A DNA stretch of 3,634 bases from a phage. Positions 1 through 3,634 of this stretch are shown here, piece by piece. Position 1 is the stretch's first letter. Each line of letters starts with the position of its first letter. The notes beneath the pieces are model-generated. The model was not told where the DNA came from, searched no databases, and saw only the letters and a list, made by a program, of their open reading frames with translations. The position numbers and the translations under genes are program-made. Where the stretch lies: the sequence record PZ049718.1. One strand, written 5' to 3'.

Positions 1-1015
1 CCGCAGTGGCGGGAATGCGCCCGAGGCGTACCGTTCCCCTGCCCTCTCGCGCATTAATTTGATCGACCACGGCCATCAGTCGATCGGCACCTAGGCGCGG
101 GGCGGCGGCGAACAGGTCACCAGTGAATTCGCCTCGCTGCCGCAGATCCATCAGCAGCACCTCGGCTTTGCTGTAGGCGTAGCCATGCCGGTAGATCGCT
201 TCAAGCCCGCGCACGGCTGCAGCGGCGAGCACGCGAGTGTCGTCGGTCGGGTACGGCAGAGGGCAGCTGATGGCGTTCGCGTATCGCGGCTGGTTGGGGT
301 TGTGCATGCCGGTACGGATGGCAACCTGCAGCGCGCCGGCCAGACTTTGCTGGGAGCGCAGCTTCTCGGCGGCCTTGGTAACGTAGGCCACGACCGCCTC
401 GCGGATCGGTGCGATGTCGCGCAGGCGGCTGCCAAACATTTTCGAGGAGCAGATCATCTGCCGGGGCGGTACCGCCTCCTCCAGCTCAAGGCAGGAGATT
501 CCATGCAGCTCGCGGGCGGTTTTCTCCAGCACCACGCTGAATTGCTTTCGCAGCGATGCGGAATCGTACTGCGCTAGGTCCCAGGCGGTCTGGATGCCCA
601 GCGGGCGCAGGCGGGTAGTCAGGCGCCGGCCGACGCCCCACACTTCGCTCACCTCGGTCATCTTCAGCAGCCGGTCGCGTCGCTCCGGGTCGCTTAGGTC
701 GATCACACCGCCGGATTTGCGCCAGGTCTTGGCTGCCCAGTTGGCGAGCTTAGCCAAGGTCTTCGTTGGCCCGATGCCCACGCCAACCGGTATGCCGGTC
801 CACCGCAGCACACGCTCACGCGTCTCATACCCTAGCGGCACCAGGTCGCCGGTTATCCCCGTCAGGTCGGCAAACGCCTCGTCGATGCTGTACACCTCGA
901 TTCGCAGGGAACATTCCCTCGATGACGTCGTCATCACCCTGGCGCTCATGTGTCCGTTTATGTGTAATAGAAAGTCAATAAGAACCGGGCCATGCTCGCC
1001 CTTGGAGCTTCTCAT
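1..1015 (-). CDS. umuC: Y-family translesion DNA polymerase, UmuC/RulB family (Pol V catalytic subunit), 5'-truncated remnant. Recognisable homology covers about 2-955; the N-terminal ~85 aa are replaced by unrelated sequence; the 3' end continues past position 1. Probably a disrupted, non-functional gene.
   Basis: Minus-strand translation reads ...HMSARVMTTSSRECSLRIEVYSIDEAFADLTGITGDLVPLGYETRERVLRWTGIPVGVGIGPTKTLAKLANWAAKTWRKSGGVIDLSDPERRDRLLKMTEVSEVWGVGRRLTTRLRPLGIQTAWDLAQYDSASLRKQFSVVLEKTARELHGISCLELEEAVPPRQMICSSKMFGSRLRDIAPIREAVVAYVTKAAEKLRSQQSLAGALQVAIRTGMHNPNQPRYANAISCPLPYPTDDTRVLAAAAVRGLEAIYRHGYAYSKAEVLLMDLRQRGEFTGDLFAAAPRLGADRLMAVVDQINAREGRGTVRLGRIPATA and continues off the edge. It matches E. 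coli UmuC motifs recalled from memory: YSIDEAF (active-site Asp-Glu), the GIxxTKTLAKLAN helix-hairpin-helix, VWGIGRR, and the C-terminal LNAKEGRGT. It is absent from the ORF track because its stop lies beyond the left edge. The same frame has an in-frame stop at 1070-1072 and a first in-frame ATG at 1013-1015, but UmuC similarity begins only near 955. The symbol is used in the family sense; rulB, mucB or impB cannot be told apart from sequence alone. Confidence 0.85.
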   Translation of the reverse strand, partial: MRSSKGEHGPVLIDFLLHINGHMSARVMTTSSRECSLRIEVYSIDEAFADLTGITGDLVPLGYETRERVLRWTGIPVGVGIGPTKTLAKLANWAAKTWRKSGGVIDLSDPERRDRLLKMTEVSEVWGVGRRLTTRLRPLGIQTAWDLAQYDSASLRKQFSVVLEKTARELHGISCLELEEAVPPRQMICSSKMFGSRLRDIAPIREAVVAYVTKAAEKLRSQQSLAGALQVAIRTGMHNPNQPRYANAISCPLPYPTDDTRVLAAAAVRGLEAIYRHGYAYSKAEVLLMDLRQRGEFTGDLFAAAPRLGADRLMAVVDQINAREGRGTVRLGRIPATA

Positions 1016-1464
1016 ACCCAACCGGTATGGCTGTAGCTTCTGAGGAGATCGCCGTCGCTCACCGGATCATCCGGTCATCCTGTTAGTAACCGGTCAAAGC
1101 TGATCTGTTACATCGAAGGCGGACACCTGTCCATCGACAACACCCCTGCCGAGCGGTGAACCGCCCTCCCATGTACATATGACCAAAACGTCGCCGTTAT
1201 CCTACCGTTCTGTCATGCCTACCCACGACGGAGTATTGACGGTCTCCGTCCTATAACATAGCTTTTCCGAAAGGCGCTCAAGTACATATCGTCATGTGCA
1301 TACGAGCCTCGTGTCGTTAAAAGAAATGGTTGGTGCCGCATGAAAGTGCTCTTCATGATGCCGTTCGGCGTGTCGAGCTTCTCCGCCCCCATCAAGATCA
1401 AGGCTTCGTCTTGGTGTTAGTGCCAGATGCACGTCACCTTGCGGTGCAGGAATGGAGTGTGAAC

Positions 1465-1827
1465 ATGAAAGCAGAAACGGAATCGCGGATTTTTTCGGTG
1501 GACGAATATGTCCGTCCGTCTAACGGCGAACCGATCCGTTCAGTTGTTCTGGAGACCAACGATTCTGTCGTTGTAGTTTGGCACGCCTACCCTAGGCAGG
1601 AAATAGCTGCCCATGTCCATCCTCACGGCCAAGATACTTGGACGGTTATCTCAGGTGAGGCCAAGTATTATCAAGGCAACGGCGTAGAAATTCATCTTAA
1701 AGCTGGAGATATTGCCATTGCAAAACCTGGGCAAGTACATGGTGCCGTGAACTCTGGTCCAGGACCTTTCATATTTGTCTCCGTGGTTGCGCCGGGCAGT
1801 GCAGGTTTTGCGTTATCTGAGAAATAG
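1465..1827 (+). CDS. Cupin-domain protein (cupin_2-type small beta-barrel, probable metal-binding), 120 aa
   Basis: This is the in-frame inner start of track ORF 1330..1827. The ATG at 1465 is preceded by GGAG at 1454-1457 (7 nt spacing); the longer upstream extension has no ribosome-binding site. Translation MKAETESRIF...AAHVHPHGQDTWTVISGEAKYY...KAGDIAIAKPGQVHGAVNSG carries both classical cupin motifs: HxH(x)3-4[E/Q/D](x)6G as H50-V-H52...G64, and G(x)5-6PG(x)2H(x)3N as G81...P88-G89-QV-H92-GAV-N96. Confidence 0.8.
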   Translation: MKAETESRIFSVDEYVRPSNGEPIRSVVLETNDSVVVVWHAYPRQEIAAHVHPHGQDTWTVISGEAKYYQGNGVEIHLKAGDIAIAKPGQVHGAVNSGPGPFIFVSVVAPGSAGFALSEK

Positions 1828-1850: not shown

Positions 1851-2414
1851 ATGAATACACGAGTATTTACGTTCGCTGGTGGAGAAACGGGGGTTTGGCG
1901 CGTTGTTGCGATGAATGCCGTGGCAGGAGCCCCTCTCCCTGGAATCCCACGGCTCAACGTAGCCGCTGGCTCTGTTTCGCCGCAGCCTCCGGGCACCAAA
2001 TGGCTCCTTCGCGGGATAACGAGTAACGAGCGCTATGTCGTGCGTGAAGAGAAGGATCGTCTCGTGGCGAAGCAGCCAAGCTTGGGTCGAGCAGAGGCTA
2101 CCTGCGCCGCCCTGATCCCTATCCGGAAAAACCCCTCATGGTGGGGACTGTCTCAAGACGAACGCCGGAAGATTTTTGAGGAACAGTCCCGTCACATTCA
2201 CATCGGGCTCCAATATCTCCCTGCTGTGGCCCGCCGCCTCCACCATTGTCGGGACCTGGGCGAGAACGAACCCTTCGACTTCTTGACTTGGTTCGAATAT
2301 TCCCCGTCTGATGAGACGGCCTTTAACAGGCTTCTGGCCGAACTCCGAGCCTCGGTGGAGTGGCAGTATGTCGACAGAGAAATCGACATCCGGCTAGTGC
2401 ATGAGCCGGCCTAG
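1851..2414 (+). CDS. cld: Chlorite dismutase family protein, short clade-2 (Nitrobacter/Klebsiella-type) Cld-like haem enzyme, 187 aa; probable chlorite O2-lyase
   Basis: Track ORF 1851..2414. The ATG is preceded by AGAGGA at 1841-1846 and lies 23 bp after the cupin stop, so the two genes are probably co-transcribed. Translation contains hallmarks recalled for the Cld family: LIPIRK followed by the adjacent Trp pair W97-W98, then SRHIHIGLQYLPAVARRL with a candidate proximal His115 (2193-2195) and distal Arg128 (2232-2234) 13 residues apart, the same spacing as the His/Arg pairs in characterised Clds, followed by FDFLTWFEY. Length and lack of a signal peptide fit the short cytoplasmic clade-2 enzymes. 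The family call rests on memory of motifs, not a search. Confidence 0.75.
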   Translation: MNTRVFTFAGGETGVWRVVAMNAVAGAPLPGIPRLNVAAGSVSPQPPGTKWLLRGITSNERYVVREEKDRLVAKQPSLGRAEATCAALIPIRKNPSWWGLSQDERRKIFEEQSRHIHIGLQYLPAVARRLHHCRDLGENEPFDFLTWFEYSPSDETAFNRLLAELRASVEWQYVDREIDIRLVHEPA

Positions 2415-2558: not shown

Positions 2559-3634
2559 CTACTTATAGCCTCCTCTTTCTCTCATCGATCTCCTCGGCAT
2601 CCTGCCGTCTAGAGCCGGCACATTGTCCAGCTTTCGAATGAGGCTCTCCAGCTTTTCCAAGTCGCCCTCGGCAATGGCTCGCTCGTCGGGAGTTAAAGGC
2701 ACGGCCTCCAAGTACCGTCCGATAGACGATTTGCTTTCCAATGCTTGGGCCCTTGCGCTGGCTTTCGGCAAGTTGAAGTCACACCCCGCACAGGCCATGC
2801 GATGTGGGCAGCTGCTCCAGAAGGGATTTGAACAATACGAGTCGCCCAAGTCATAGAAGGTGTAGGGGGCATCTGAATGGCGAACAATTACGTCATGATC
2901 GATCAAAACGGAGACCATATGGGCCATTTGATCGGCTTTAACGAAGGATGCTGCCAGCTTGGTAGGCCGAATTCGAATGTAATGCAAAGTCGAATTCGGC
3001 GAGCTATGTCCCGACCACTGCATTAGCTCGATCAGCGACATGCCCTGAGGGACGCTGGCGAGCGCCGTCACTGCGGAGGCACGTCCCCGGTGGCTGGTGA
3101 TTCGCCCGCGACTGTCCTCCAGTGGCACACCCGCCTTGGCGCATAGCATTGGAATGATGGTGCCATTAATGACACTGGAGCCTATGCGCTTGCCTCGAAA
3201 CTGAAATAGGTAGCTAACTTTTTCCCCGGTTCGCTCATCCAGCAAAGCGGCCTGGTTAGCAGGCCTGTCCTCCAGCCAGGCGTCAATGCGCTCCTTCACG
3301 ACCACCGCTACAGGTTTGACGAAAGCTTTGAACGTCTTGCTGGCAGGAATATCGAGATAGCATAAAGTTTTTGCTGGAACGATGGTCCCATCCTCGTGTA
3401 CCACATCATTGGTCTGAGGATGCGCGCATCTTTTATCCAAGCGCATGATTTCATTGCTGCGCAAACCAGCGTGCGTCCACACTACAGCAATGGCTTGAAC
3501 CATCGACAGCGGATAGTGAATCTCCGAAAGCAGATCACTACGCTCAAGATTTAGACTCGCCCAAATCAGCTTGAGCCAGGTCGAGTCATCAATTACCCGC
3601 GGGTTGATACCCGAGTTGAATGTCACGGATCGCG
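2559..3634 (-). CDS. Tyrosine-type site-specific recombinase/integrase, partial (N-terminal core-binding domain lies beyond the right edge), with a ~139 aa extension after the catalytic Tyr
   Basis: Track ORF 2559..3626. The listed start is a GTG and the frame stays open to the window edge, so the gene is 5'-partial. The catalytic signature is complete: Arg-I in VWTHAGLRSNEIMRLD (R56), HxxR in SHRGRAS (H179, R182), the second His/Trp in QWSGHSS (H207) and the nucleophilic Tyr in TLHYIRI (Y216, plus-strand 2979-2981). Only ~50 aa precede Arg-I within the window, consistent with a missing N-terminal domain. Stop codon TAG at 2559-2561. Confidence 0.9.
   Translation of the reverse strand, partial: RSVTFNSGINPRVIDDSTWLKLIWASLNLERSDLLSEIHYPLSMVQAIAVVWTHAGLRSNEIMRLDKRCAHPQTNDVVHEDGTIVPAKTLCYLDIPASKTFKAFVKPVAVVVKERIDAWLEDRPANQAALLDERTGEKVSYLFQFRGKRIGSSVINGTIIPMLCAKAGVPLEDSRGRITSHRGRASAVTALASVPQGMSLIELMQWSGHSSPNSTLHYIRIRPTKLAASFVKADQMAHMVSVLIDHDVIVRHSDAPYTFYDLGDSYCSNPFWSSCPHRMACAGCDFNLPKASARAQALESKSSIGRYLEAVPLTPDERAIAEGDLEKLESLIRKLDNVPALDGRMPRRSMRERGGYK

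Follow-up and report, generated by a model that had tools for sequence, protein, structure and literature searches.

A probable site-specific insertion of a chlorite dismutase-carrying, two-recombinase element at the Tyr77 codon of umuC/rulB

The truncated umuC gene and its junction

The stretch of DNA analyzed here, 3,634 nucleotides of the phage sequence record PZ049718.1 (the window, always meaning this stretch at its full length), contains a truncated umuC/rulB gene joined to a block of unrelated DNA that carries genes for a cupin-domain protein, a chlorite dismutase (Cld) and a large tyrosine recombinase (Table 1). The boundary between the two, at 957/958, is very probably the cargo-side end of a 4,843-bp site-specific element with two recombinases, referred to below as the cld element, which would have inserted into the Tyr77 codon of umuC/rulB (T^AC).

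The umuC remnant comprises codons 78 to ~395 of a 418-codon gene together with 1-2 nt of the Tyr77 codon (956-957), and its C-terminus extends beyond the left edge of the window. Read in the sense direction, the minus-strand frame runs ...LLHIN-GHMSARVMTT...IEVYSIDEAF... and matches the Pfam domains IMS (Y-family polymerase), IMS_HHH, IMS_C and DUF4113; the closest database proteins are 89-91% identical by BLASTP, and full-length 418-aa UmuC homologues align with 87-89% identity. The IMS match covers profile positions 74-146 of 148, with the His of HMSARVM as its first residue and positions 1-73 missing. The homologues read ...VVCFSSNYELY77-G78QMSARVMTT..., and the frame of the window joins them at Gly78: its final whole codon is the Gly at 953-955, and the second and third bases of the Tyr77 codon occupy 956-957. 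A first-pass annotation, made from the letters of the window, had placed an abrupt junction at about 950-960, and Pfam, alignment and megablast together locate it at 957/958. That annotation described the HMSARVM frame accurately but assigned it to UmuC residues near 85-90, where the alignment gives residues 79-85; likewise, the part of umuC that is missing amounts to ~230 bp, not ~260 bp.

To the right of the junction the similarity to UmuC ends completely. The frame continues upstream as MRSSKGEHGPVLIDFLLHIN, which bears no similarity to UmuC, until an in-frame TGA stop at 1067-1069 (previously given as 1070-1072). Translation of 958-1250 in the three minus-strand frames did not reveal the UmuC N-terminus, and tblastn searches of the window with three such N-termini returned only spurious matches (best E=0.22), in agreement with the earlier description of this region; the contiguous N-terminus that had been considered for 956-1250 is therefore not encoded there. 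The shift in base composition reported at first pass was also reproduced, with a GC content of 0.63-0.69 at bases 1-900 compared with 0.50-0.55 at 1000-1800.

An ATG within the foreign DNA lies in frame with the umuC remnant, and the resulting fusion is annotated in databases as a 361-aa 'DUF4113 domain-containing protein' with the 20-residue leader MRSSKGEHGPVLIDFLLHIN and without the N-terminal 77 residues of UmuC. Rather than being homologues that naturally begin at this point, these 361-aa proteins represent the same insertion with the same leader. In a Klebsiella relative of the element (L006; read by eye) a TGA interrupts the corresponding frame, and the fusion is therefore likely to be coincidental. 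For annotation purposes, a 361-aa "DUF4113 protein" that starts with MRSSKGEHGPVLIDFLLHIN can be taken as umuC truncated by the cld element. The fusion is represented by proteins P0001 and P0008, and cluster P0008 has 39 member sequences on 54 contigs.

The junction was refined by megablast of bases 1-1400 of the window against a database of 72,556 plasmids. Twelve Pseudomonas and Stutzerimonas plasmids are 100% identical to the window from 955, 956 or 957 rightwards, and none of these 12 matches bases 1-954. The last target base is thus 957 and the first base of the element 958, although the T at 957 is assignable to either side by sequence alone, and the last umuC-derived base becomes 956 if it is counted as part of the element. 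All contexts share TTTATGTGTAATAG..., and flank comparison places the divergence immediately to the left of TTATGTG in 21 distinct contexts. The complete element has the form TTATGTGTAATAG ... GCATTCCACCTAA-CTTAAT and is 100% identical over 4,843/4,844 bp in all complete copies that were compared (L001, L003, L004, L005, L011, L018, L022 and L026); the window follows it base for base over its 2,677 bp from the junction. The precise breakpoint that had been attributed to insertion of foreign DNA is hence borne out as the end of a discrete element found, without change, in many unrelated contexts.

The umuC allele of the window has no identical record in the plasmid collection or in the protein database, where the best proteins are 91% identical. 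Its best nucleotide match is the flank of the element in a 2.9-kb metagenome-assembled contig (L021), with 99.8% identity (952/954 aligned bases) and every difference within 52 bp of the junction. Relative to that allele, the indels constitute a compensated +1/+2 frameshift, in which SSRECSL replaces LEGMFP, and His replaces Gln79. The proposal that the gene was broken by insertion and not by point-mutational decay therefore stands for the insertion, but the remnant is not free of small changes; possible explanations for the differences at 906-950 are conversion with a paralogous occupied site, early pseudogene decay, or a consensus error at the boundary of a repeat. Other umuC alleles contain sequence similar to the variant stretch, such as cctcgatgac in L010.

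Copies of the element, empty sites and crossover geometry

A scan for the terminal 31-mer, using one genome per species, identified 20 loci in Pseudomonas, Stutzerimonas, Atopomonas and Pseudidiomarina, and the addition of plasmid loci gave 21 distinct flanks and 20 distinct umuC alleles. In all 20 alleles one identical nucleotide marks where the cargo-side end meets the codons for (Y)G-D-M-S-x-R-V-M, read as their reverse complement. Because the same element end meets the same codon position in 20 distinct alleles, the junction is not a product of chance. The hosts are Pseudomonas aeruginosa megaplasmids, Stutzerimonas and other environmental pseudomonads, with copies both on chromosomes and on large clinical and environmental plasmids.

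At the far end, complete copies carry the part of the gene that is absent from the window: umuC codons 1-77 (...FSSNY-x-L-) adjoin the element in L001, L003, L015 and L026, with umuD beyond, as the first-pass annotation had anticipated. Canonical CTGT-N8-ACAG LexA boxes are present upstream of umuD in L003, L015 and L026; no such box was found by the umuC 5' stub of L001.

Four genomes contain several copies: P. abietaniphila (L012, L014, L019, L020), P. pseudonitroreducens (L009, L013, L018), Pseudomonas sp. GW6 (L016, L022, L024, L025) and S. chloritidismutans. In the first three of these the element occupies two to three or more umuC paralogues at once, and in some genomes it assembles as a separate contig of ~4.85 kb; it appears there to fill every available copy of umuC.

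Comparison with uninterrupted alleles, as had been suggested at first pass, was made possible by one plasmid backbone family in which the site exists in three states: empty (L027, L028), occupied in the orientation of the window (forward, L003) and occupied in the reverse orientation (L004, L005, L011). The empty plasmid alleles read straight across the site as TCGCTCT-ACCAAT-CGCTCAGC. In umuC sense, the forward copy reads CTCT|ATTAAG...CACATAA|ACCAATCGC, so that the target sequence ACCAAT follows the element, and the reverse copy in L005 reads CTCTACCAAT|TTATGTG...CTTAAT|CGCTC, the arrangement common to all three reverse copies being ACCAAT|element|CGCTC. Relative to the empty sites, insertion adds exactly 4,843 bp and neither duplicates nor removes any target bases. 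The insertion points of the two orientations are 6 bp apart (T^ACCAAT^C), and in both orientations the target 6-mer lies beside the TTATGTG (cargo) arm and CTTAAT beside the recombinase-side arm. CTTAAT is present in every copy, including those collapsed into single contigs in the multi-copy genomes; the spacer in P. syringae, Klebsiella and Pantoea relatives is CTTACT.

The 6-bp rule was tested on a Pantoea relative, in which the large recombinase is only 58% identical, and it holds. The intact Pantoea allele (L033) reads T^ATCATA^GTCTCAGC, the reverse insertion (L031) reads CTTACT|GTCTCAGC, exactly 6 nt downstream, and a forward insertion (L034) reads CACATAA|ACCACAGTCTC. In-situ inversion of a forward copy was considered by hand as a source of the reverse copies and rejected, as inverting the element with or without the 6-mer fails to give the observed junctions. 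Since no inversion interconverts them, the forward and reverse states are independent insertions.

At the level of sequence, these comparisons establish that the insertion is site-specific, duplicates nothing and falls at one boundary of a 6-bp central region, and that the two 6-mers are inherited asymmetrically while the spacer of the element stays constant.

Proposed mechanism and alternatives

Both tyrosine recombinases encoded by the element would catalyze the reaction, with the two terminal arms and the 6-bp spacer together forming an 11-6-11 core site. Strand exchange would occur effectively at only one boundary of the 6-bp central region: the 6-mers are non-homologous, yet only one type of product is seen, which suggests that in effect a single strand is exchanged. 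Replication might then resolve this one exchange, the pathway of the CTX phage and of integron cassettes, or the outcome might be strongly strand-biased. The cld element resembles the products of that pathway in having the 6 bp of the target on one side and the 6 bp of the element on the other, as a single exchange gives. Excision would be the simple reversal of insertion, which would account for the constancy of the spacer.

In the prevalent orientation, to which the window belongs, the recombinase genes run the same way as umuDC/rulAB and start 60 nt past the truncated umuC', a gap that holds only a ribosome-binding site. The recombinases may therefore be read from the LexA-controlled umuD-umuC' promoter, and movement of the element may be induced by the SOS response. 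Judged from gene order alone, SOS-dependent expression is plausible because the recombinase genes follow umuD and its LexA boxes without room for a promoter of their own; such expression has been proposed for related elements of P. syringae (PMC4542609). The choice of umuC as target would also allow an element without transfer genes to ride on plasmids, because conjugative plasmids commonly carry umuDC/rulAB.

A copy-out mechanism like that of the SE and Tn554 elements, in which the 6 flanking bases are carried along and re-inserted as a variable footprint at the other end, is improbable, despite several shared features. These comprise an ordinary and a large tyrosine recombinase, a strict target, imperfect terminal inverted repeats, the absence of transfer genes and the asymmetric handling of a 6-bp unit on integration (PMC10214605); elements of the SE type also use umuC, and one that carries tmexCD3-toprJ1 adjoins the cld element in L004. 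However, SEs and Tn554 bring the flanking 6-mer of the donor to the next site (PMC10214605; bioRxiv 10.1101/2022.09.22.508988) and SEs leave variable 6-bp footprints (PMC10214605), whereas here the spacer is CTTAAT in every copy and CTTACT in relatives that are 58-81% identical, and hops from one umuC to another should leave umuC-derived 6-mers. The polarity is also mirrored, the 6 bp of the target lying beside the cargo end here and beside the integrase end in SEs. No counterpart of Tfp or Srap/TnpC is annotated in the element, and neither recombinase has BLASTP similarity to the SE IntA, Tfp and IntB of L004.

We consider it more doubtful still that host XerC and XerD move the element through dif-like ends, with its own recombinases as passengers or accessory factors. 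The small recombinase is indeed XerC/D-like, and the joined ends, ATTCCACCTAA-CTTAAT-TTATGTGTAAT, have the 11-6-11 layout of dif and match 9/11 bases of the XerD arm of E. coli dif, a resemblance treated here as a lead only. Yet integration is in umuC and not in dif in all of the more than 20 cases, the target flanks are unlike Xer binding arms, the element always carries its own catalytically complete pair of recombinases, and the NCBIfam scores lie far under the XerC/XerD cut-offs (95 against 330 bits). Least credible of all is that no insertion took place, and that the junction is an assembly chimera, the endpoint of a deletion or rearrangement, or a frameshifted but contiguous umuC. The small indels and substitutions clustered within 52 bp of the junction could be consensus errors at a repeat boundary and so lend this explanation something, but independent assemblies numbering more than 20, complete plasmids among them, show the same junction geometry, one plasmid allele is seen both empty and occupied, and no frame to the right of the junction contains the UmuC N-terminus.

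Site-specific insertion by the element's own two recombinases is thus the explanation we favor, and several points weigh against it. The far end of the element, the gene for the small recombinase, the umuC 5' fragment and umuD all lie beyond the window and are inferred from identical copies elsewhere, and the recombinases are putative movers of the element. The target arms have no evident similarity to the arms of the element. With the 1-nt ambiguity of the T at 957, a separation of 4 bp rather than 6 between the two orientations is formally possible. A search of metagenome contigs for the circular or tandem joint (CTTAAT, then any 6-nt spacer) gave zero matches. Finally, the reverse-orientation copies do not have the umuD-umuC'-recombinase arrangement, and it is from gene order that SOS control is deduced.

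Element contents, relatives and known systems

The features of the window are collected in Table 1. The cargo genes converge on the recombinase genes, which occupy the opposite strand. The cargo-side and recombinase-side arms form an imperfect inverted repeat, and the relatives L006 (Klebsiella) and L029 (P. syringae) retain the cargo-side arm as TT(A/G)TGTG(T/G)AAT; these short terminal repeats were spotted by eye and confirmed by alignment across relatives, and a generic inverted-repeat finder run on the element did not report them.

Table 1. Features of the 3,634-nt window
Feature	Position	Strand	Basis or remark
umuC/rulB 3' fragment (DNA polymerase V catalytic subunit)	1..957	-	Pfam domains; BLASTP; alignment with 418-aa homologues
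Four differences from the L021 allele	906..950	-	+A at 906, +TG at 923-924, A/G at 925, G/C at 950
Insertion junction	956..959	.	Start of megablast identity, flank divergence, empty-site comparison
Cargo-side terminal arm TTATGTGTAAT	958..968	+	Imperfect inverted repeat of the recombinase-side arm TTAGGTGGAAT, which lies beyond the window
Element-derived leader MRSSKGEHGPVLIDFLLHI(N)	958..1015	-	ATG at 1013-1015, in frame with the umuC remnant
Conserved non-coding terminal region	958..1090	+	Aligns with Klebsiella relative L006 over ~130 bp
IS66-family transposase gene remnant	1085..1299	+	Only the tail ...LICYIEGGHLSIDNTPAER* left
Cupin-domain protein, 120 aa, cargo gene 1	1465..1827	+	Pfam Cupin_2, E=2e-13
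Clade-2 (dimeric) chlorite dismutase, 187 aa, cargo gene 2	1851..2414	+	Pfam Chlor_dismutase; PDB matches
721-aa tyrosine recombinase, C-terminal 358 codons	2559..3634	-	Pfam Phage_integrase; WP_011914409

The IS66 remnant has lost ~340 bp relative to Klebsiella relatives, as seen in alignment with L006, where the matching open reading frame (L006 7554-8201) hits Pfam DDE_Tnp_IS66; by megablast, this region of the window is 85% identical to ~480 enterobacterial plasmids. The cupin is annotated as WP_071534424 in all copies. Residues 1-187 of the chlorite dismutase match PDB 9gtj_A (E=4e-128), with further matches to 5k8z and 3qpi, both dimeric Clds, at E ~1e-58, and the pair formed by the cupin and the chlorite dismutase is linked to detoxification of chlorite and reactive chlorine. 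The 721-aa recombinase gene runs past the right edge of the window and is seen whole in L001 and L003; its catalytic motifs are the Arg in GLRSNE (3450-3467), HRGR (3081-3092), GHSS (3000-3011) and the Tyr in LHYI (2976-2987). In complete copies elsewhere a second recombinase gene, encoding the XerC/D-like protein of 339 aa, overlaps it, with a start codon 60 nt inside the element end in L003; in the related element of plasmid pPP1-1 the distance is 62 nt. The integron-integrase models give 65 bits where the cut-off is 265, and 36 where it is 435.

A tblastn search with the 721-aa protein matched 578 plasmid records. The closest non-identical relative is on pPP1-1 of P. syringae pv. pisi (L029), with 83% (339-aa) and 80.9% (721-aa) identity and the order rulA, rulB' (82 codons), integrase, large recombinase, type III effector (L029 5381-6211) and rulB 3' part. 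This arrangement belongs to the type III effector (T3SE) integron-like elements (ILEs) located in rulB, which include the avrPpiA1 region of pv. pisi and one in pv. tomato DC3000, on plasmid A (Arnold et al. 2000; Jackson et al. 2011, as cited in PMC4542609), and which have been described as having an integrase located ~60 bp away from where rulB' ends, cargo convergent on the integrase and an influence of LexA (PMC4542609). The cld element shares with them the target gene and, in pPP1-1, the same position (T^AT GGC GAC), a rulB/umuC gene split so that the 5' fragment is short and the 3' fragment long, the gene order with the integrase ~60 bp from the rulB' end and convergent cargo, the same terminal arms and nearly the same 6-bp spacer. 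It differs in its cargo, which is a type III effector there and a cupin and a chlorite dismutase, with an IS66 remnant, here, and in its hosts, the P. aeruginosa megaplasmids, Stutzerimonas and environmental pseudomonads named above.

By these resemblances of sequence and arrangement, the element is a cld-carrying member of the known two-recombinase rulB/umuC 'integron-like element' family; type III effector cargo gives the T3SE-ILE subtype its name but is no defining feature of the mobility module. Elements that carry recombinases have umuC/rulB as an established hotspot, and nothing known is overturned here. Rhodes et al. 2014 had no evidence on the exact integration site of T3SE ILEs (PMC4542609), and both the exact point of crossover and the sequences of the ends can now be fixed for this subtype. 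The crossover geometry at the nucleotide level and the breadth of cargo in the family, both read from sequence comparisons, would go somewhat past the literature found.

That breadth is seen among the more distant relatives, which again adjoin umuC or umuD (L030-L032). In Klebsiella (L030 9236-13548) the cargo is a CBASS anti-phage operon (nucleotidyltransferase, ThiF/E1-like, MPN and SAVED proteins), in Pantoea (L031 9232-15487) it is a crcB-gpmA-eno-usp fluoride-type cluster with other genes, and L032 has other cargo genes; the same two-recombinase module thus carries quite different cargo among relatives. We consider it possible, though doubtful, that these elements make up a distinct transposon-like family, with a 339-aa XerC/D-like and a ~720-aa recombinase, separate from SEs, GInts, RITs and Tn554. 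Such a family would be marked by a one-boundary 6-bp crossover at umuC Tyr77, single or strongly biased strand exchange without homology between target and element, and SOS control; the module has cld, CBASS operons, fluoride-resistance genes and type III effectors as cargo, and resides on Pseudomonas megaplasmids and on plasmids of Klebsiella, Enterobacter and Pantoea.

Other recombinase-borne elements of this hotspot, namely ILE-FH1, ILE-FH4 and ILE-FH5 and the SE-type int-int-hp-hp elements with tmexCD-toprJ, likewise rely on tyrosine recombinases, bring adaptive cargo and move between chromosomes and plasmids. Unlike the cld element, they possess three genes of the recombinase fold, accompanied by tetR or a small fourth gene, and the SE-type proteins have no BLASTP similarity to its recombinases. 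A GAT triplet in the rulB of pWW0 is where the three-recombinase ILEs actively integrate (Rhodes et al. 2014, PMC4542609), whereas the cld element lies at the Tyr77 codon. SEs and GInts have four core genes (intA, tfp, intB and srap, or ginABCD); here there are only two recombinase genes, the rest being cargo and the IS66 remnant. Tn554 of Staphylococcus (TnpA, TnpB and TnpC), compared by description, has a similar pair of an ordinary and a large recombinase, but no small TnpC-like gene is annotated in the cld element, its spacer is constant and its hosts are Gammaproteobacteria. Xer/dif systems and integrons share the 11-6-11 core layout and an XerC/D-like small recombinase. In contrast to Xer/dif and IMEX, the cld element has two recombinases of its own and targets umuC, not dif; in contrast to integrons, no attC-like folded site and no cassette structure were identified in it, its cargo is on the opposite strand, its target is not attI, and the integron-integrase models score far below their cut-offs.

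In L004, the P. aeruginosa plasmid pPae-WC20-001-01, umuC is interrupted twice (~24,905-26,420): a second junction, 67 bp downstream and at the S-I-D codons, leads into more foreign DNA, an ISL3 element and the SE-type int-int-hp-hp genes with tmexCD3-toprJ1. umuC therefore holds at least two separate hotspots that are used by unrelated recombinase systems.

In enterobacteria, an 85%-related cargo end, truncated by IS26, adjoins a samB/umuC stub at the same codon in ~480 plasmids, and has been described only as an 'IS26-cld-IS26 unit' (PMC7319535); this related copy is fossilized in hundreds of Klebsiella and E. coli plasmids. Barnum and Coates 2022 reported the subfamily of this cupin as the one most tightly linked to Cld (PMC9751292), and the cupin of the element, both recombinases, the 73-aa umuC stub and umuD are among the tightest Cld-linked subfamilies in that study. 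The proteins of the element were listed there only as Cld-linked 'genetic mobility' subfamilies, and identical Cld proteins across genera were noted without the element being delimited (PMC9751292). Our literature search found no paper that names the cld element. The junction described here shows the cupin and chlorite dismutase pair moving as an identical 4.8-kb unit.

Two further observations concern the flanks. The AR439 megaplasmid of P. aeruginosa (L001) has, just past the umuC 5' stub (25339-33501), a mer operon and a second, different integrase pair, made up of a 617-aa protein and a 538-aa hypothetical protein. In the Stutzerimonas and Pseudomonas plasmids of rep_cluster_1516, a hypothetical gene of ~373 codons stands between umuD and umuC (L003 25096-26217, L027 523-1644 and L004 18624-19745), an arrangement that is unusual for a umuDC operon.

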